Shown here: positions 46,566 through 56,223 of the stretch, piece by piece
How the letters are laid out: the number at the start of each line of letters is the position of its first letter
Numbering within the stretch: position 1 is the stretch's first letter
NCBI RefSeq assembly: GCF_003019035.1
Contig: NZ_CP027447.1
Direction: 5' to 3' (one strand)
Source of the DNA: Escherichia coli
Lineage (GTDB): Bacteria > Pseudomonadota > Gammaproteobacteria > Enterobacterales > Enterobacteriaceae
DNA: 64,000 nucleotides
Translations under genes and position numbers: made by a program
Notes under the pieces: generated by a model
The model's input: only the letters and a program-made list of their open reading frames with translations
What the model was told of the DNA's origin: nothing
Databases searched by the model: none

Positions 46566-47654
46566 ATGAACAACCGGGAGAAGGAGATCCTTGCAATATT
46601 AAGGCGTAACCCGCTGATTCAGCAGAACGAAATTGCGGATATGCTGCAAATCAGCCGTTCGCGTGTTGCAGCGCATATTATGGATTTAATGCGCAAAGGT
46701 CGGATTAAAGGCAAAGGTTACATTCTCACCGAGCAGGAATACTGCGTAGTGGTGGGGACAATCAATATGGATATTCGCGGGATGGCGGATATCCGTTACC
46801 CGCAAGCGGCTTCTCATCCCGGTACCATTCATTGCTCGGCAGGCGGCGTTGGACGCAATATCGCCCACAATCTGGCGCTGTTAGGCCGCGACGTCCATTT
46901 GCTTTCAGTGATTGGCGATGACTTTTATGGCGAAATGCTCCTGGAAGAAACGCGCCGCGCCGGCGTGAATGTCTCCGGCTGCGTTCGTTTACATGGTCAA
47001 AGCACATCGACGTATCTGGCAATTGCCAATCGAGACGATCAAACCGTGCTGGCGATTAACGATACCCATCTGCTGGATCAGTTGACACCGCAACTACTGA
47101 ACGGGTCGCGCGATTTACTTCGTCATGCGGGCGTGGTACTGGCTGATTGCAACCTGACAGCCGAGGCGCTGGAGTGGGTCTTTACCCTCGCTGATGAAAT
47201 CCCGGTGTTTGTCGATACCGTTTCAGAATTCAAAGCGGGCAAAATCAAACACTGGCTGGCGCATATTCACACTCTGAAACCCACTTTGCCGGAGCTGGAA
47301 ATTTTATGGGGCCAGCCGATAACCCGCGATGCTGATCGTAATGCCGCAGTGAATGCGTTGCATCAGCAAGGCGTTCAGCAACTGTTTGTTTATTTGCCCG
47401 ATGAGTCTGTTTATTGCAGCCAAAAGGATGGCGAACAATTTTTGCTGACTGCGCCAGCGCATACGACGGTAGACAGTTTTGGTGCTGACGATGGTTTTAT
47501 GGCGGGCCTGGTGTATAGCTTTCTGGAAGGAAGCAGTTTCCGTGATAGTGCCCGTTTTGCGATGGCCTGCGCGGCAATTTCACGCGCCAGCGGCAGCTTA
47601 AACAACCCTACCCTGTCTGCCGATAACGCGCTTTCATTAGTGCCGATGGTGTAA
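46566..47654 (+). CDS. yeiI: PfkB-family sugar kinase with N-terminal HTH, YeiI, 362 aa
   Basis: N-terminal winged-helix then ribokinase-like fold; parallels psuK. Confidence 0.88.
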   Translation: MNNREKEILAILRRNPLIQQNEIADMLQISRSRVAAHIMDLMRKGRIKGKGYILTEQEYCVVVGTINMDIRGMADIRYPQAASHPGTIHCSAGGVGRNIAHNLALLGRDVHLLSVIGDDFYGEMLLEETRRAGVNVSGCVRLHGQSTSTYLAIANRDDQTVLAINDTHLLDQLTPQLLNGSRDLLRHAGVVLADCNLTAEALEWVFTLADEIPVFVDTVSEFKAGKIKHWLAHIHTLKPTLPELEILWGQPITRDADRNAAVNALHQQGVQQLFVYLPDESVYCSQKDGEQFLLTAPAHTTVDSFGADDGFMAGLVYSFLEGSSFRDSARFAMACAAISRASGSLNNPTLSADNALSLVPMV

Positions 47655-47709: not shown

Positions 47710-48960
47710 CTACGCTAAGCCAATAAAGAACCCGGCAATGGTGGCACTCATCAGGTTAGAAAGTGTCGCCGCCGCCAGCGCGCGTAAACCAAGCTGGGCG
47801 ATTTCCGGCGCGCGGTGTGGCGCAACCGCAGAAAATGCCCCCACCACCACCCCGATAGAACCAAAGTTAGCGAAACCGCACAACGCGAAGGAAATAATCG
47901 CCACGGTTTTAGCATCCAGAGTGCCAGCTGTTTGCAGATAAGGTGAGAAATTGAGGTAAGCGACAAATTCATTAATCGCCAGTTTCTGTCCAATCAAACT
48001 CCCGGCAAGATTCGCATCACTCCAGTCAACCCCCATCACCCACGCCAGTGGAGCCAACAGGTAACCTAAAATGGACTCCAGCGAGGCATGTTCAAAACCA
48101 AACCAGCCGCCAACGCCGCCGATAATACCGTTAATCAACGCAATTATTGCAACAAATGCCATCACCACTGTCGCTACACCGGCGGCGATTTTCAGCCCGG
48201 TCATTGCCCCTGTCGCAGCGGCTTCAATAATGCTTTTTGGCGGTGTTTCGGTGAAAGAGAGGTTATTAAAGGAAACCTGCGAAGATTCCGTAGCCGGACT
48301 TAACAGGCGGGCAAACAAGATCCCACCAGGGATAGCCATTAACGATGCCGCCAGCAGATATTCCACAGGCACGCCCAGTGCGGCGTAACCAATCATTGTC
48401 GAACCAGCAATCGAGGCCATCCCGCTACAAATCGCTGTAAATAATTCATTGCGATTCAGACGATCGATAAAGGGTTTGACGATTGCCGGAATTTCGTTTT
48501 GCCCGAGGAAAATGGTAGTGACCGCGACGAACGACTCGATCTTGCTGATATTTAACGCTTTCTGGAAGATACCGCCGAGAATGCGAATTAAGATCCCCAT
48601 CACACCGATGTAGTAGAGAATACTCACCAGTGCTGTAACGAAGATAATTGCCGGTAATACCCTGAAACCAAAGATAAATCCTGCACCATCAAATAAGGTG
48701 TCCATTTTCGGTCCGACCAGAGAACCGAAGATAAATGCGCTACCTGCATCGCTGTACGCCATCACTTTATGCACGCCAAAAGCGACTTTTTCTGCGACCC
48801 AACGCCCTGGCGGTAACCAAAGCATAATGCCGCCAATCACGACCTGTAACACTAACGCCGCGCCAACGGTACGCAGGCTGATCTTCTTCTTGTTTACTGA
48901 CAGCAAAAACGCAATTGCCAGCAGTACCACCATTCCCAGAACACTTCTCATGACATCCAT
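47710..48960 (-). CDS. nupX: NupC-family (CNT) nucleoside transporter NupX, 416 aa
   Basis: CNT family; close paralogue of the psuT ORF in this window. Confidence 0.88.
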   Translation of the reverse strand: MDVMRSVLGMVVLLAIAFLLSVNKKKISLRTVGAALVLQVVIGGIMLWLPPGRWVAEKVAFGVHKVMAYSDAGSAFIFGSLVGPKMDTLFDGAGFIFGFRVLPAIIFVTALVSILYYIGVMGILIRILGGIFQKALNISKIESFVAVTTIFLGQNEIPAIVKPFIDRLNRNELFTAICSGMASIAGSTMIGYAALGVPVEYLLAASLMAIPGGILFARLLSPATESSQVSFNNLSFTETPPKSIIEAAATGAMTGLKIAAGVATVVMAFVAIIALINGIIGGVGGWFGFEHASLESILGYLLAPLAWVMGVDWSDANLAGSLIGQKLAINEFVAYLNFSPYLQTAGTLDAKTVAIISFALCGFANFGSIGVVVGAFSAVAPHRAPEIAQLGLRALAAATLSNLMSATIAGFFIGLA

Positions 48961-49059
48961 AGTTATTATCTCTTCATGTCATTTTGGGCGACGGCTTTCT
49001 GCCCATCAGAAATAGCCAGGCTTGCATCTTGCGATACCGGCCCGGCTTGATATCACCAC

Positions 49060-50001
49060 TTAGTGGGTTTTGATGTAGCCGCGCACGCACTCTTCGACTA
49101 ATCCCCAGAACCAGTCGGTATCAATAGTGATGCCGACTTTGGTATTGGCGGGCTTGCCAAGAACGCCCAGCTCGTCGCAGACGGTACGCCCGTAACAAGG
49201 GCCACTGTTGACGTCCACTTCGACGTACATCTCCTGGGTTTTAATGCCATCGGGGTTAATCAGATAACCGATACAGGTGGCGTCATGTACCGGGCCGCCA
49301 GCCAGACCGTAGTTTTCGAACTGCGTTTTGAGAGTGAAGTTCATGATGTCGCTGAACAGCTCTCCGGCGGGGCCGCCTGCTCTTTCCATCCGTGCAATCA
49401 CGTCCGGAGTGCAAACGGTCTGGTTGGTGAGATCGAGGCCCATCATCACTAATGGAACGCCGGAGGTGAACACCACGCGTGCGGCTTCCGGGTCAGCAAA
49501 AATGTTGAACTCGGCAGATGGGGTGAAGTTGCCAGTACCGTAAGCGCCGCCCATCAGTACAATTTCACGGATTTTTGGCAAGATTGCGGGTTGCATACGC
49601 ATTGCCACCGCGATATTTGAAAGCGGACCAACCGGCACCAGAGTGATATCGCCATCGCTTGCCATCAGGGTATCGATGATATATTTCACCGCATGGGTGT
49701 TTTCTGCCTGACGAGTCAGCGGTTCGAATACCGGACCATCCAGCCCGGTTTCACCGTGAATATTATCGGCAACGATTTGTTGACGCATAATGGGTTGCGG
49801 CATCCCCGCATAAACCGGAACATTAATCTCCAGTTTCTGGCAAACATTCAGGCCATTAATTAATGTTTTATCGAGGGTTTGATTCCCCGCCACAATAGTG
49901 ATACCTAATAAATCAATCGCCGGATGTTTCGCTGCCATCATCATTGCAATAGCATCATCATGACCCGGATCACAATCCAGAATAATTTTTCTCTTTTCCA
50001 T
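49060..50001 (-). CDS. rihB: Pyrimidine-specific ribonucleoside hydrolase RihB, 313 aa
   Basis: Nucleoside hydrolase DxDxxxDD N-terminal motif ([15 protein letters not shown]). Confidence 0.9.
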
Positions 50002-50169
50002 TGTTTATTTCCTCTGTTTCCAGTTGCGTTATTTTTTCTACAGCAAAGAAAATTCGACCGGGCCGATGATTGAATCTTAACAACAGCGTACGTATGCTAA
50101 ATATGAGAAATCTCATAGCGGATAAATATCGTGAAAGAAATCCACAATAATGATCTTAAGCAGCAATTG

Positions 50170-50829
50170 ATGAGTGAATCCGCGTTTAAGGATTGCTTTT
50201 CAACGGATGTTTCAGCCGATACGCGGCTGTTTCATTTTTTAGCGCGTGACTACATAGTGCAGGAAGGGCAACAGCCGTCCTGGCTGTTTTACCTGACGCG
50301 AGGCCGCGCCAGGCTTTACGCCACGCTTGCTAATGGTCGCGTGTCGCTGATCGATTTCTTTGCCGCCCCCTGTTTTATTGGTGAGATTGAGTTAATCGAT
50401 AAAGACCATGAACCGCGTGCGGTACAGGCTATTGAAGAGTGTTGGTGCCTTGCGCTCCCTATGAAACATTACCGCCCGCTGTTATTAAACGACACGCTAT
50501 TTTTACGAAAACTCTGCGTTACTTTAAGCCATAAAAATTATCGCAATATTGTTTCTTTAACTCAGAATCAATCATTTCCGTTAGTGAATCGCCTGGCAGC
50601 ATTTATATTACTCTCACAAGAAGGTGATCTTTATCACGAAAAGCATACGCAAGCGGCAGAGTATTTAGGCGTTTCTTATCGACATCTTTTATATGTTCTC
50701 GCGCAATTCATTCACGACGGTTTATTAATTAAAAGCAAGAAAGGATATCTAATTAAAAACAGAAAGCAGTTGTCAGGACTGGCGCTGGAGATGGACCCGG
50801 AGAATAAATTCTCCGGGATGATGCAGTAA
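50170..50829 (+). CDS. yeiL: CRP/FNR-family regulator YeiL, 219 aa
   Basis: cNMP-binding-like domain and C-terminal HTH; ORF-track start 50131 is a GTG, trimmed to ATG ([10 protein letters not shown]). Confidence 0.8.
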
Positions 50830-50896: not shown

Positions 50897-52147
50897 TCAA
50901 GCTAAACCAATAAAGAACCCGGCAATGGTCGCGCTCATCAGGTTGGAAAGCGTTGCTGCTGCCAGCGCCCGTAAACCAAGCTGAGCGATTTCCGGTGCGC
51001 GTTTTGGCGAAATAGCCGAAAATGCCCCAACGACAACACCGATAGAACCAAAGTTAGCAAAACCACAAAGCGCAAAGGAGATAATCGCAATGGTTTTCAC
51101 TTCCAGTGTACCACCCGTTTGCAGATACGGAGAGAAACTCAGGTAAGCGACAAATTCGTTTATCGCCAGTTTCTGCCCAATCAGGCTACCGGCAAGGTTA
51201 GCATCGCTCCAGTCTACTCCCATGATCCACGCCAGTGGCGCCAGCACATAGCCAAAAATACTTTCCAGAGAAGCATTGGCGAAACCAAACCAGCCGCCAA
51301 TTCCGCCGATAATGCCGTTGATCAGCGCAATAATTGCAACAAACGCCATTACCACCGTCGCTACACCAGCGGCGATTTTCAGCCCGGTCATTGCACCGCT
51401 CGCCGCCGCTTCGATAAAGCTTTTTGGCGGCGTTTCGCTGAACGACAGGTTTTCAAATGTCACCTGTGAAGGCTCGGTTGCTGGGCTAAGAATACGCGCA
51501 AACAAAATACCGCCGGGGATAGCCATCAGCGATGCCGCTAACAGGTAGTCAATCGGCACGCCCATTCCGGCATAACCAATCATCATCGAACCGGCAATGG
51601 ACGCCATCCCGCTACAAATTGCGGTAAACAACTCGTTGCGATTCATGCGATCGATAAACGGTTTTACGATCGCCGGGATCTCGTTTTGCCCGAGGAAAAT
51701 AGTAGTGACTGCAACAAAAGACTCGATTTTGCTGATGTTAAGGGCTTTCTGAAAAATGCTGCCAAGAATACGAATCAGCAGCCCCATCACGCCAATGTAG
51801 TACAGCAGACTGATGAGCGCAGTAACGAAGATAATCGCCGGAAGTACGCGAAAGGCGAAGATAAAACCCGCACCGTCAAACAAGACATCCATTTTCGGCC
51901 CAACCAGCGAACCAAAAATGAAGGCGCTACCGGCATCACTGTAAGACATCACTTTATGAACGCCTAATGCCGCCTGTTCTACTGCCCATTTTCCCGGTGG
52001 GAAGTAGAGCATGATGCCACCAATAGCAATTTGCAGCAGCAGCGCGGCTCCAACCGTGCGCAAACTGATGCTCTTTTTATTCACTGACAACAGAAATGCT
52101 ATTGCCAGTAACACCACCATCCCCACAACACTTCTCATTATATCCAT
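50897..52147 (-). CDS. psuT: NupC-family nucleoside (putative pseudouridine) transporter PsuT (YeiM), 416 aa
   Basis: CNT family, paralogue of nupX; operon with psuG and psuK. Confidence 0.88.
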   Translation of the reverse strand: MDIMRSVVGMVVLLAIAFLLSVNKKSISLRTVGAALLLQIAIGGIMLYFPPGKWAVEQAALGVHKVMSYSDAGSAFIFGSLVGPKMDVLFDGAGFIFAFRVLPAIIFVTALISLLYYIGVMGLLIRILGSIFQKALNISKIESFVAVTTIFLGQNEIPAIVKPFIDRMNRNELFTAICSGMASIAGSMMIGYAGMGVPIDYLLAASLMAIPGGILFARILSPATEPSQVTFENLSFSETPPKSFIEAAASGAMTGLKIAAGVATVVMAFVAIIALINGIIGGIGGWFGFANASLESIFGYVLAPLAWIMGVDWSDANLAGSLIGQKLAINEFVAYLSFSPYLQTGGTLEVKTIAIISFALCGFANFGSIGVVVGAFSAISPKRAPEIAQLGLRALAAATLSNLMSATIAGFFIGLA

Positions 52148-52240
52148 AATGATTTTCCCTTCATGCCAGTAAACCCGGCGTCAGCGCCAGGTTTTGGTAT
52201 GTATGATCAGTACGGGCGACGGCTTTCTGCCCGCCAGAAA

Positions 52241-53179
52241 TTAACCCGCGAGACGCTGGTATTCTTTGGCAATTTCGCTCGCCAGAATGGCGTTGTTGAA
52301 CACCAGTTGGATGTTGGATTTCAGGCTGTCACCGCCAGTCAGTTCAGCAACACGAGCCAGCAGGAACGGTGTGCTTTCTTTACCAATAACGCCCTGCTCT
52401 TCGGCTTCGGCGACGGCTTGATCTATGGCTGCATTGATAGATTCCTCCGGCATCGCAAACTGCTCCGGGATCGGATTCGCCACTACCAGGCCGCCGTTCA
52501 AACCGGTTTGCCATTTCACTGCCATTGCACGAGCGATTTCCGTGGCACTATCAAGGCGAATGCTGACGTCAAACGGGCTGGTACGGCAGAAAAACGCAGG
52601 CAGCGCTTTTGTCTGATAGCCAATTAACGGCACACCGAAGGTTTCTAAATATTCTGTTGTTAATCCTAAATCGAGAATAGATTTTGCACCGGCACAAACA
52701 ACGGTGACATTAGTATTTGCCAGTTCTTGCAAATCGGCAGAAATATCGAAGGTATGTTCCGCCCCGCGATGCACACCACCAATTCCCCCGGTGGCAAATA
52801 CTTTAATTCCGGCAAGCGCCGCAATAATCATCGTTGAAGCCACAGTGGTTGCGCCATTTTTTCCGGCGGCAACGACAAAAGGTAAATCGCGACGACTAAC
52901 TTTGGTCACGTTATGCCCTTCGCGACCCAGCAATTCAATTTCTTCTTTGCTTAAACCCACTTTCATCACGCCGCCAATAATGGCGATAGTGGCAGGTACA
53001 GCGCCCTGTTTACGAATAGTTCCTTCAACTTCAATTGCGGTCTGGGCATTTTGTGGGAACGGCATCCCGTGAGAAATAATGGTCGATTCCAGCGCCACAA
53101 CCGGTTTTTTGTTTTTTAAAGCGTCCTGCACTTCCGGGGAAATTTGTAATAATTCAGGGGAAATTTTTAATTCAGACAT
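52241..53179 (-). CDS. psuG: Pseudouridine-5'-phosphate glycosidase PsuG (YeiN), 312 aa
   Basis: Indigoidine synthase A-like family; overlaps psuK by 13 nt. Confidence 0.9.
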   Translation of the reverse strand: MSELKISPELLQISPEVQDALKNKKPVVALESTIISHGMPFPQNAQTAIEVEGTIRKQGAVPATIAIIGGVMKVGLSKEEIELLGREGHNVTKVSRRDLPFVVAAGKNGATTVASTMIIAALAGIKVFATGGIGGVHRGAEHTFDISADLQELANTNVTVVCAGAKSILDLGLTTEYLETFGVPLIGYQTKALPAFFCRTSPFDVSIRLDSATEIARAMAVKWQTGLNGGLVVANPIPEQFAMPEESINAAIDQAVAEAEEQGVIGKESTPFLLARVAELTGGDSLKSNIQLVFNNAILASEIAKEYQRLAG

Positions 53180-54108
53180 TCTGCGTTCTCCACTAACGAT
53201 ATAACGTTGGCAATCGATAAATCGGGGTTATTGGTGTATTCACAGGAGAGCGCCATTGACGAACATCCCTGTGCGAAACGAACAGATTCGGCAAACGGCA
53301 TTCCGTCTACCCAACACGAAGCAAGTCCCGCCATCATGGCATCACCCGCTCCGGTAACATTAATGACATTGGTTTTGATCGGCGCAGACCAGCCACTTTC
53401 ACCGCTGATATCGCTGTAATAAACGCCATCGCCGCCCATGCTCAATACCAGTCGGTTCAGGCCATGTTGATGGAACCAGGCAGCAACTTTTGCCACATCT
53501 TCACGCCCTGACAGCGCAATCCCACTCAGGGTTTCCGCTTCAAGGCGGTTTGGCTTGAGAGTGTGGATTTGATTTAGACGGTCGCGCACTTTGACACATT
53601 TCCACGCAGAAACCGGATCGACAAATACGGGTACGTTGGCGGCATTATCCAGAATCCATGCCAGTGCCTCTTCACTGATATTACAGTCCGCGACAATGAC
53701 CTTTGCCCTCTGAATAAATTCACGATGCTGTGCGAGATATTCAGCTGTAATAGCGTTGCTAATATTCATGTCATTTATAGCAACCAGCATTTCACCGGTA
53801 TTATCGAGTAATGATAAATAGCTCGACGTATTTTCTCCCGGCACAATCAGGCATTTATCGACATAAACACCAGATTGATTGGTTTGCGTTAGCAACGATT
53901 GACCATAAAAATCACTGCCTACTGCGCTCAGTAGCCAGGCTTTATTCCCCAGCAACGCCAGGTTTTGTGCAATATTGCGCCCTACTCCACCAGGCGTAAA
54001 CTTTATTTTACCTGGATTTGAATCCGCATAATTTAATGATTCATGTGAATATCCGGCGACATCAATATTCGCCGAACCTATAATTACGACATAATCCTTT
54101 TCGCGCAT
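53167..54108 (-). CDS. psuK: Pseudouridine kinase PsuK (YeiC), PfkB family, 313 aa
   Basis: Ribokinase-like fold with GAGD motif (VTGAGDAMMAG). Confidence 0.9.
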   Translation of the reverse strand: MREKDYVVIIGSANIDVAGYSHESLNYADSNPGKIKFTPGGVGRNIAQNLALLGNKAWLLSAVGSDFYGQSLLTQTNQSGVYVDKCLIVPGENTSSYLSLLDNTGEMLVAINDMNISNAITAEYLAQHREFIQRAKVIVADCNISEEALAWILDNAANVPVFVDPVSAWKCVKVRDRLNQIHTLKPNRLEAETLSGIALSGREDVAKVAAWFHQHGLNRLVLSMGGDGVYYSDISGESGWSAPIKTNVINVTGAGDAMMAGLASCWVDGMPFAESVRFAQGCSSMALSCEYTNNPDLSIANVISLVENAECLN

Positions 54109-54175
54109 AGCACGTCCTCTGGTAAAAAATTACCAACCCTGTCAATCCACAAGAATATAGATACTGCAAAGACGG

Positions 54176-54211
54176 TTTAAACATGTGTTCATATTTAAAC
54201 ATGTGCTCATA
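54176..54211. repeat. Perfectly abutting tandem direct repeat, 2 x 18 bp (TTTAAACATGTG[T/C]TCATA), in the psuK promoter region
   Basis: Seen in sequence about 68-103 bp upstream of the psuK start codon; each unit contains an ACATGT palindrome. Confidence 0.45.
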
Positions 54212-54344
54212 GTATGCATGTTTTACGTAAAGTAAATTACCGCCAGAGAGGCAAAATGGGCAGATTTGAGCAGGCTCACAAAACGCGATTAAATGCCTGA
54301 ATTATAAAAACGGGGAATTTGTGACGGGAGGCACAGAACAGGAA

Positions 54345-54378
54345 CAATAAAAAAGGGCAGAAAATAATCTGCCCTTGA
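54345..54378 (-). terminator. Rho-independent terminator downstream of fruA (end of fruBKA operon)
   Basis: Hairpin AAGGGCAG-8nt-CTGCCCTT followed on the minus strand by UUUUUUAUU. Confidence 0.6.
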
Positions 54379-54531
54379 GGAAATAACCTTAGTGTTTGAT
54401 GAACATTTCAGGTTTCTACTGAAAGATAAAACCATTTAAATTCATAAAATTACATTCACAAACTGGTCATTCCCTTTGCGCGCATCAAATGTTACAGGGC
54501 AGGAAATTTCTGCCCTGGAACACACCTTTTA

Positions 54532-56223
54532 TTACGCTGCTTTTGCTACTGCGTCCACTTCCGGACGTTTCAGGAAGGCATAGGCCAGACCCGCCACCAG
54601 CGTACCGGCAATAATGGCTACCAGGTAACCCAATACCGGCGTAATCGCGCCAGGGATCAGCAGAACAAACAGACCACCGTGCGGTGCCATCAGTTTCGCA
54701 CCAATCGCCATTGAGATTGCGCCAGTCAGCGCCCCACCCACGATACAGCACGGCAGCACACGCATCGGATCACGGGCAGCAAACGGAATTGCACCTTCCG
54801 AAATAAAGCACAGTCCCAGTACCAGAGCAGCTTTGCCCCCTTCCTGCTGCGCCTTGTCGAATTTGCGACGCGCTACCATTGTTGCCAGCCCCATTGCCAG
54901 CGGTGGCACCATACCTGCCGCCATAATCGCCGCCATCGGGCCATAGGTTTGAGTACTCAGCAGACCCACACCGAACGCGTACGCTGCTTTGTTTACCGGA
55001 CCGCCCATGTCAGTACACATCATGCCACCGAGGATCGCCCCCAGCAGAACCGCATTCGCAGTCCCCATGGTCTGCAGCCAGTGAGTCAACCCTTCGAGAA
55101 TGCCAGCAACCGGTTTACCGATCAGGTAGATCATCGCCAGACCGACCACCAGACTGGAAATTAGCGGAATGATCAGAATCGGTTTCAGCGCCTCCATACT
55201 CTGTGGCAGTTTCAATTGCGTACTGATTAACTTCGCAATGTAACCAGCCAGGAAGCCCGCAATAATACCGCCAATGAAGCCAGAACCGGTGCTGACCGCC
55301 AGCATACCGCCAATCAGACCCGGCGTGAGACCCGGACGATCGGCAATGGAAAAGGCAATATAACCTGCCAGTACCGGCACCATCAACGCAAAGGCTGAAC
55401 CACCACCAATCTGCATCAGCGCCGCAGCCAACGTACCCGGCTCTTTAAACGCTTCGATACCAAAAGCAAAAGAAAGCGCGATACACAGACCACCTGCAAC
55501 GACCATCGGCAGCATGTAAGAGACGCCCGTCAGCAAGTGACGGTAAGCGCCTGCACTCTCTTTCTTACCTTCAGTGGTCGCTGTTTGAGCTTTGCCCGCT
55601 GGTTCATACGGCGTTGCTTCAGCAACCGCTTTATCCAGTTCCTGCGCAGTTTTCTTCAGCGCCAGACCGGTAGAGGTGCGATACATCGGTTTACCAGCAA
55701 ATTTCGCCAGATCCACTTCGATATCTGCCGCCACAATCACCAGATCCGCTGCGGCGACTTCTTCAGGGGTGATTGCATTACCCGCGCCAACAGAACCACG
55801 GGTTTCAACTTTCACCCACCAGCCACGTTTTTTCGCTTCGGTTTCAATGGCTTCAGCCGCCATAAAGGTGTGTGCTACGCCAGTCGGGCAAGCAGTCACC
55901 GCAACTACGCGTTTCGGACCGCTGGCGGCAACCGGTGCTGTCGCAGCGACCGGCGCAGTGTAAGGTTTCGCATGGCCTTTGGCTTCACTCAGGAACAGCT
56001 CAGGGTGCGCAACTGCCCGGGAAATATCGCCCAGCCAGACATTTTTACCGTTCAGCGCGCTGTCATTCGGGATGGAATCACCGAGAACAATCGCCATTTC
56101 TGCGTCGTTCGGATTGTCGATGATTTCCAGTTTTGCTTTTCGCGCCGCCGCGCCCAGCAGGGTCTTCGCCATATAGGCGCGTGCCTGACCGAGATTAGCG
56201 TCAATAATCAGCAGCGTTTTCAT
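54532..56223 (-). CDS. fruA: PTS fructose-specific EIIB'BC component FruA, 563 aa
   Basis: Duplicated IIB domains and IIC membrane domain; operon fruBKA. Confidence 0.93.
   Translation of the reverse strand: MKTLLIIDANLGQARAYMAKTLLGAAARKAKLEIIDNPNDAEMAIVLGDSIPNDSALNGKNVWLGDISRAVAHPELFLSEAKGHAKPYTAPVAATAPVAASGPKRVVAVTACPTGVAHTFMAAEAIETEAKKRGWWVKVETRGSVGAGNAITPEEVAAADLVIVAADIEVDLAKFAGKPMYRTSTGLALKKTAQELDKAVAEATPYEPAGKAQTATTEGKKESAGAYRHLLTGVSYMLPMVVAGGLCIALSFAFGIEAFKEPGTLAAALMQIGGGSAFALMVPVLAGYIAFSIADRPGLTPGLIGGMLAVSTGSGFIGGIIAGFLAGYIAKLISTQLKLPQSMEALKPILIIPLISSLVVGLAMIYLIGKPVAGILEGLTHWLQTMGTANAVLLGAILGGMMCTDMGGPVNKAAYAFGVGLLSTQTYGPMAAIMAAGMVPPLAMGLATMVARRKFDKAQQEGGKAALVLGLCFISEGAIPFAARDPMRVLPCCIVGGALTGAISMAIGAKLMAPHGGLFVLLIPGAITPVLGYLVAIIAGTLVAGLAYAFLKRPEVDAVAKAA

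Follow-up and report, generated by a model that had tools for sequence, protein, structure and literature searches.

The psuKGT genes let Escherichia coli use pseudouridine, a nucleoside freed by RNA turnover, and the promoter of psuK has been selected repeatedly, both during mouse-gut colonisation by K-12 and in long-term stationary phase. In the 64,000 nt of E. coli DNA analysed here (from here on: the window), two 18-mers, TTTAAACATGTGTTCATA (54176-54193) and TTTAAACATGTGCTCATA (54194-54211), follow each other without a gap upstream of psuK and are identical at 17 of 18 positions. Does this repeat provide two neighbouring sites for a regulator, does it duplicate a promoter element, or is it a neutral product of slippage? 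And if a regulator binds there, which one is it?

The abutting units and their single mismatch, first described in a sequence-only reading of the locus, were confirmed by inspection and by Tandem Repeats Finder (period 18, 2.0 copies, 94% matches). The distance to the psuK start given in that reading was also right, with the repeat located 68-103 bp upstream of the ATG. At up to three mismatches the 18-mer occurs just at these two sites within the 64-kb window; 0.07 matches were expected by chance, and two or more were reached in 0 of 100 shuffles. The repeat of K-12 MG1655 is identical to that of the window. The intergenic region between psuK and the end of fruA (54532) upstream of it is 100% identical to that of strain SCU-301 and was found in 4232 of 5426 complete E. 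coli genomes. Another tandem repeat, at 53132-53171 (period 21, 1.9 copies, 89% matches, consensus TTCAGGGGAAATTTGTAATAA), is located at the psuG start and reaches the 3′ end of psuK and the psuK/psuG overlap. The features of the region are collected in Table 1.

Table 1 Features at the psuK promoter and genes of the candidate regulators, in window coordinates
Feature	Position	Strand	Remarks
yeiI	46566..47654	+	Winged HTH (residues 1-48) and PfkB kinase-like domain; proposed repressor
yeiL (CRP/FNR family)	50131..50829	+	Rival candidate, disfavoured; 68 bp beyond psuT
psuK (53167-54108), psuG (52241-53179), psuT (50897-52147) operon	50897..54108	-	
Shine-Dalgarno sequence GAGGAC of psuK	54114..54119	-	Conserved
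7-bp stem-loop UUGGUAA-UUUU-UUACCAG	54119..54136	-	5′ UTR, just before the Shine-Dalgarno sequence
Operator unit O2 (putative)	54176..54193	-	psuK sense TATGAACACATGTTTAAA; dyad core GAACACATGTTT = 54179-54190, at ~ +13..+24 of the inferred start; centre 18 bp from the O1 centre
Operator unit O1 (putative)	54194..54211	-	psuK sense TATGAGCACATGTTTAAA; dyad core GAGCACATGTTT = 54197-54208, at ~ -6..+6 of the inferred start; its first 3 nt coincide with the final 3 nt of the -10 hexamer
Predicted transcription start	54202	-	An A, 7 nt past the -10; inferred from the -10 position alone
Inferred -10 hexamer TACTAT	54209..54214	-	Kept gap-free in all aligned taxa; TATTAT/TATCAT in some
Inferred -35 hexamer TTTACT	54231..54236	-	16-bp spacer to the -10; TTTAC invariant
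CRP-like box TGTGAGCCTGCTCAAA	54265..54280	-	TGTGA-N6-TCA[A/T]A; centre at ~ -70.5 from the predicted start
Terminator-like hairpin and T-run downstream of fruA	54353..54376	-	

Every 18-bp unit contains a 12-bp dyad, GA(A/G)CA-YR-TG(T/C)T(T/C), with the symmetrised consensus TTTGAACA-YR-TGTTCAAA, or TTTGAACAcaTGTTCAAA as a whole. A scan for PsuK in one genome per species yielded 11 loci from Escherichia lineages, E. albertii, Citrobacter and Buttiauxella, the upstream regions of which were aligned in the psuK sense. A block of ~105 bp that comprises the CRP-like box, the -35 hexamer, the 16-bp spacer, the -10 hexamer and both dyads aligns with zero gaps across the three genera; between O2 and the Shine-Dalgarno region the conservation is poor. 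The two dyad cores are spaced by exactly 18 bp in 12 of 12 Escherichia, Citrobacter and Buttiauxella loci, and the same spacing occurs in a second E. coli allele (allele B, see below) and in [Enterobacter] lignolyticus. The central dinucleotide is CA, TG, CG or TA, a pyrimidine-purine step throughout, and O2 of E. albertii is the perfect palindrome GAACATATGTTC.

Near-identity of the two units is confined to one E. coli-type allele (allele A). Outside of it, the units match each other at only 12-14 of 18 positions; the units of C. braakii are TATGAACATGTGTTTGAT / AGTGAACATGTGCTCTAA and those of E. albertii TATGAACATGTGTTTAAA / TCCGAACATATGTTCTAA. Because two dyads occur at the same spacing in taxa whose units are not duplicates, the operator pair appears to be old, and the dyads are best read as ancient operators and not as a recent duplication. 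E. coli, E. whittamii and two other Escherichia lineages share the 36 bp of allele A without change, the single A/G difference between the units included, although nearby intergenic bases differ. We read the near-identity of the allele A units as a secondary homogenisation that was followed by purifying selection on both units. The comparison of orthologous psuK promoters proposed in the sequence-only reading thus found the dyad pair kept across Escherichia, Citrobacter, Buttiauxella and [Enterobacter] lignolyticus, and supports its suggestion of two adjacent regulator sites, as the 12-bp dyads and their 18-bp spacing persist where the units differ. The repeat is very probably a functional operator pair.

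Further operator-like sites above chance were not detected by a weight-matrix scan of the 64-kb window, including the region upstream of nfo-yeiI, and of the outgroup loci, and therefore no local regulon beyond psuK can be defined. An origin of allele A by inversion of a 30-bp block with both dyads was also considered; compared by hand, the inverted orientation is slightly better than the direct one (25/30 versus 22/30 matches), a difference that does not discriminate between them because the sites are palindromic.

How stable the repeat is within E. coli was addressed by searching synthetic one-copy and three-copy versions against the 5426 complete genomes. Allele A is present in 4222 and the divergent allele B, which includes ST131, in 1200 of them (5422 of 5426 in sum). 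Allele A was recovered at full length from ~4207 genomes, ~4195 of them with two units (~99.7%), 8 with three units (a record span of 214 bp) and 4 with a single unit (178 bp). A single copy in most strains, named in the sequence-only reading as the sign of a neutral duplication, is accordingly not what the genomes contain. The three-copy forms, T-T-C and T-C-C, sit on different flanking haplotypes and the one-copy forms on two, from which it follows that the copy-number events were independent. Unequal exchange or slippage hence occurs at this site, and two copies are strongly maintained. We also rejected a contingency locus, that is, phase variation by repeat number, given that just 12 of the ~4207 genomes depart from two copies.

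Allele B is almost identical to the sequence of E. albertii. The dimorphism of the psuK promoter suggests an old polymorphism or introgression that reaches into psuK itself. Individual strains carry further changes: strain EA7 has a one-copy repeat and, ~60 bp before the promoter region of psuK, an IS5 element, in CFSAN061769 an ISKpn26-like element stands in place of psuK and part of psuG, and in Z1323CEC0015 psuK is frameshifted.

The dyads overlap the elements of a candidate promoter. Within the alignment, its -35 hexamer varies only as TTTAC(T/A) and its -10 hexamer as TA(C/T)(T/C)AT, and the predicted start would give psuK a 5′ UTR of ~94 nt. Farther upstream, TGTGA and TCA.A of the CRP-like box are invariant in Escherichia, Citrobacter and Buttiauxella, the stretch from the box to O2 aligns gap-free, and E. 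lignolyticus has the same box. The position of this putative CRP site would be of the class I type. The CRP sites tabulated in the main text of the Footprint-seq preprint do not include the box.

Experimental evolution provides information on this promoter. The psuK/fruA intergenic region was a parallel target in mouse-gut colonisation, with changes in 5 of 7 mice in one study, each time the same A->C substitution at MG1655 version-2 coordinate 2257444 (PMC7518454). An A->C change in 'psuKp' was recurrent in three long-term stationary-phase populations. According to the authors of the evolution work, the SNP alters growth and belongs to the promoter region of psuK, and intergenic changes of this kind can alter the expression of flanking genes, with psuK named; psuK qPCR is indicated as given in Supplementary Data 16 of PMC9509342. 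We transferred the coordinate to NC_000913.3 with an offset of 1978, calibrated on four srlR mutations; only this value reproduces all four amino-acid changes, and it assumes that the two reference versions differ by no further indel between psuK and srlR. The SNP thereby maps to 2259422 of NC_000913.3, corresponding to window position 54234, the third base of the -35 hexamer. In the psuK sense it is a T->G change that converts TTTACT to TTGACT. As the only allele selected at this locus improves its -35 hexamer, TTTACT-16-TACTAT is supported as the functional promoter. A 61-mer with the SNP has exact matches in five sequenced genomes, including fEC.1 from a pigeon; the other four (ER1821R, ER2683, S17-1 and ST18) we take to be K-12 laboratory derivatives. 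Since the dyads are located over the predicted start and just downstream of it, and not upstream of the promoter, repression would be implied.

Which protein could bind there? The sequence-only reading had pointed to yeiI, with an N-terminal HTH, and to yeiL as regulator genes in the vicinity; the former is favoured by our analysis and the latter disfavoured. The HTH of YeiI was verified by a match to HTH_24 at residues 1-48 (E = 1e-10). Its PfkB domain is 39% identical to PsuK, with GADD at residues ~303-306 in place of the catalytic GAGD of PsuK (GADE in YeiI of Affinibrenneria), and therefore YeiI may be a poor or inactive kinase. A layout of psuK-psuG-psuT followed by convergent yeiI-nfo, without yeiL, rihB and nupX, was found in 8 outgroup loci (E. 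albertii, five of Citrobacter type, one of them labelled as a Raoultella MAG, and two of Buttiauxella), and the same psuKGT/yeiI-nfo layout is present in E. lignolyticus and Affinibrenneria. Wherever the psuK promoter is readable in these yeiL-less loci, the operator pair is present; YeiL is hence not needed for its conservation. We regard YeiL as a less likely regulator of these sites, because E. albertii, Citrobacter and Buttiauxella have the operator pair but no yeiL at the psu locus. The block of nupX, rihB and yeiL (47710-50829) between psuT and yeiI is restricted to the E. coli-like Escherichia lineages and is missing in E. albertii, Citrobacter and Buttiauxella. Within it, NupX looks like a recent paralogue of PsuT, judged by a protein identity of ~88%.

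Papers from 2022 and 2025 term YeiI uncharacterised, and its listing (b2160) continues to be that of an uncharacterised sugar kinase. The literature searched named neither a regulator nor a start site for psuKGT, while curated regulon databases may list the motif; searches of the literature likewise returned no experiment on binding of YeiI to O1/O2. No solved structure covers the HTH part of the YeiI-type family.

A wider search with YeiI returned 778 relatives, and the genomic context of 12 was fetched. The gene of the YeiI homologue is co-localised with psuG in 12 of these 12 contexts and in the 8 outgroup loci. At 10 loci (Yersinia, Serratia, Photorhabdus, Xenorhabdus, Erwinia, Pasteurella, Chelonobacter, Shewanella, Aliivibrio and a Ruminococcaceae) the gene for an HTH-PfkB protein is the first of the psuG operon, often followed by one for a nucleoside transporter. 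The HTH domain is present in 12 of 13 aligned family members, the exception being PsuK, and YeiI and the fused kinases hardly differ in their HTH segment, SRSxVAxHI helix included. The GAGD motif is intact in PsuK and in all the fused kinases and is replaced by GADD or GADE in each YeiI found alongside a separate PsuK. PsuK is 58-60% identical to the fused kinases of enterobacteria and Pasteurellaceae, 38-45% to those of Shewanella, Aliivibrio and the Ruminococcaceae, and 38-41% to YeiI. Retention of the catalytic motif in most taxa makes it probable that the fused protein combines the roles of enzyme and regulator.

These loci allowed an independent test of the motif. A weight matrix was built from the sites of Escherichia, Citrobacter and Buttiauxella only and was applied to the HTH-kinase loci. 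In 8 of 9 gammaproteobacterial loci it detected a dyad pair, spaced by 18-19 bp, immediately before the HTH-kinase gene. The scores ranged from 10.8 to 24.2 (Shewanella 24.2, Erwinia 22.7, Yersinia and Serratia 20.7 each, Photorhabdus 19.2, Aliivibrio 16.1, Pasteurella 13.5, Chelonobacter 10.8). In 3000 background windows of 300 bp, the 99th percentile was 5.7, a score of 10 was reached by 0.3% and a score of 13 by none. With the same matrix, Xenorhabdus gave no pair but a single good site further upstream, and the locus of the Ruminococcaceae, a Firmicute, gave no match. In Yersinia and Serratia the operator-like sites fall inside the annotated 5′ end of the HTH-kinase gene; judged by the protein alignment, in which other members start at the second Met, the annotated start is probably nine codons too early there.

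The case for YeiI is built on the co-localisation of its gene with the pathway and on the co-occurrence of the motif, and on these grounds we consider it likely that YeiI binds O1 and O2. We propose that O1 and O2 form a palindromic operator pair on and just downstream of the psuK transcription start, within a weak, probably CRP-assisted sigma-70 promoter that would drive psuK-psuG-psuT. Two repressor dimers on O1/O2 would block the binding or the escape of RNA polymerase. The repressor would most likely be YeiI, with its winged HTH and pseudouridine-kinase-like PfkB domain; the latter may sense pseudouridine or pseudouridine 5′-phosphate and release the protein from DNA. To the statement in full, a conserved repressor operator pair over the psuK start that is bound by YeiI, we incline on balance.

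Such a system may have arisen from a single HTH-kinase gene that headed a psuG operon behind the same operator pair, a state that would persist today in Yersinia, Serratia, Photorhabdus, Erwinia, Pasteurella, Chelonobacter, Shewanella and Aliivibrio. In the lineage of Escherichia, Citrobacter and Buttiauxella this gene would have been duplicated, with the operator pair kept before psuK. The PsuK copy would have remained an enzyme, losing the HTH with GAGD intact, and the YeiI copy would have kept the HTH while GAGD changed to GADD. The homogenisation of the allele A units probably came about by unequal exchange, which may still give rise to the rare one-copy and three-copy strains. It seems an even call to us whether YeiI-type proteins are an undescribed class of regulator, winged HTH-pseudouridine kinases that in most Gammaproteobacteria act as first enzyme of the pathway and as its autorepressor at the paired GAACA-YR-TGTTC operator, and that were split in the Escherichia/Citrobacter lineage into PsuK and the pseudokinase-like pseudouridine sensor YeiI. 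If the model is true, it provides a function for the orphan E. coli K-12 gene yeiI and suggests a subfunctionalisation in which a bifunctional enzyme-regulator gave rise to a separate enzyme and sensor. A sequence oddity would be turned into a concrete model with operators at 54176-54211, promoter hexamers, the base of the SNP and a named repressor.

The operators could be genuine and yet serve a regulator other than YeiI, be it YeiL, RutR or an unlinked factor. The gene yeiL is close at hand beyond psuT (Table 1). [quoted passage not shown] Against YeiL and RutR stands the distribution of genes: yeiL is missing from the psu locus not only in E. albertii, Citrobacter and Buttiauxella but also in E. 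lignolyticus and Affinibrenneria while the operator pair is kept, and no CRP-family or TetR-family gene is consistently found at the loci of Yersinia, Serratia, Photorhabdus, Pasteurella, Chelonobacter, Shewanella, Aliivibrio and Erwinia, all of which carry the HTH-PfkB gene together with the motif. In favour of another binder, loss-of-function alleles of yeiI were never reported in the evolution studies, whereas frlR, dgoR, srlR and glpR have many. This counts as a real objection to a simple dedicated repressor, unless the promoter stays too weak even when derepressed or losing YeiI carries a cost. Moreover, under ciprofloxacin, deletion of recA in several clinical E. coli isolates puts PsuG and PsuK in the group of most strongly reduced proteins (log2 FC to ~-6; PMC11039860). 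This strong recA dependence hints at inputs beyond a local sensor and suggests a RecA-dependent or lysis-dependent induction of the psu operon, which the YeiI model does not explain. A LexA box was considered in addition and rejected, since CTGT-N8-ACAG is not present by eye. GAAC-N4-GTTC resembles the SOS box of Gram-positive bacteria, a likeness judged irrelevant for LexA of E. coli. Taken together, a binder other than YeiI appears to us rather improbable.

The remaining readings dispense with repression or with function. If the sites acted positively, as an upstream activator site, or as a different promoter, the gene-proximal unit could supply the -35-like TTTAAA of a TTTAAA(54181-54176)-16-TATATT arrangement, which a consensus scan found on the psuK strand with 9/12 matches. 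This is no better than chance, since 2 promoter-like matches were found in the region versus 1.5 expected. The TATATT segment is not kept in allele B, E. albertii, Citrobacter and Buttiauxella, whereas TTTACT-16-TACTAT is, and the recurrent SNP improves the upstream -35 hexamer, not TTTAAA. The duplicated promoter element suggested in the sequence-only reading, with a match that exists only in allele A, is hence poorly supported, and we regard a positive or promoter role of the sites as very unlikely. A functionless slipped-strand duplication would accord with the one to three copies seen across E. coli genomes and with the independent events behind them, but departures from two copies are confined to the 12 genomes mentioned above, the 36 bp remain identical across E. 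coli, E. whittamii and two other Escherichia lineages between differing flanks, and dyads at the same spacing recur in taxa with non-duplicate units. We give this neutral origin hardly any credence.

As a proposed operator pair for YeiI, the repeat can be compared with known systems. Tandem palindromic operator pairs that accommodate two repressor dimers at promoters are represented by the ARG boxes of ArgR, the NrdR boxes and the PurR/CytR type operators of catabolic and nucleoside operons. Like these, the psuK dyads are short, two in number, fixed in their centre spacing and conserved across genera, and with the predicted start they would cover the -10 hexamer, the start itself and the early transcript. 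The psuK dyads differ in their distance of 18 bp, as compared with 21 bp for ARG boxes and 31-32 bp for NrdR boxes, and in having units that directly abut and are 17/18 identical in one lineage. We know of no E. coli operator consensus that matches GAACA-YR-TGTTC at 18-bp spacing. The psuK promoter would further resemble class I catabolic promoters of CRP, with its conserved CRP-like TGTGA-N6-TCA.A box ~70 bp upstream of the predicted start and its poor -35 hexamer.

Fusions of enzyme-like sensors to DNA-binding domains are known from the ROK-family proteins NagC and Mlc, from BirA, NadR and PutA, and from archaeal RbkR. YeiI is similar to them in combining an N-terminal HTH with a homologue of the pathway kinase and in being encoded among the pathway genes. 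It differs in that a regulator composed of a winged HTH and a PfkB domain is not described in the literature searched, and in that the roles appear to be split in E. coli between the enzyme PsuK and the sensor YeiI with its GADD. The dyad pair itself is functionally an ordinary kind of element, while the assignment of the regulator appears to be new.

Some neighbouring elements of the psuK leader deserve mention. The stem-loop before the Shine-Dalgarno sequence (54119-54136) is kept in all taxa, with one pair being C:G in most, U:G in E. albertii and U:A in allele A; its single-sequence folds have energies of -6 to -10 kcal/mol (z -1.1 to -2.1). RNAalifold gave no consensus for this 5′ UTR hairpin, the automatic alignment being poor, and a search of Rfam with 53900-54700 at E <= 1 returned two chance-level matches only and no RNA family. 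A sigma-54 promoter, considered on account of TGGCA..TTGC before the Shine-Dalgarno sequence, was rejected: its elements are one base too close in most taxa, and the window lacks the GC. On the upstream side, the terminator-like hairpin at 54353-54376 would insulate the psuK promoter from read-through of fruBKA. Past the fruA stop codon a second hairpin is located at ~54497-54525 on the same (minus) strand, and the proximal one at 54353-54376 scores as an intrinsic terminator, so that a double fruBKA terminator seems to precede the psuK promoter.
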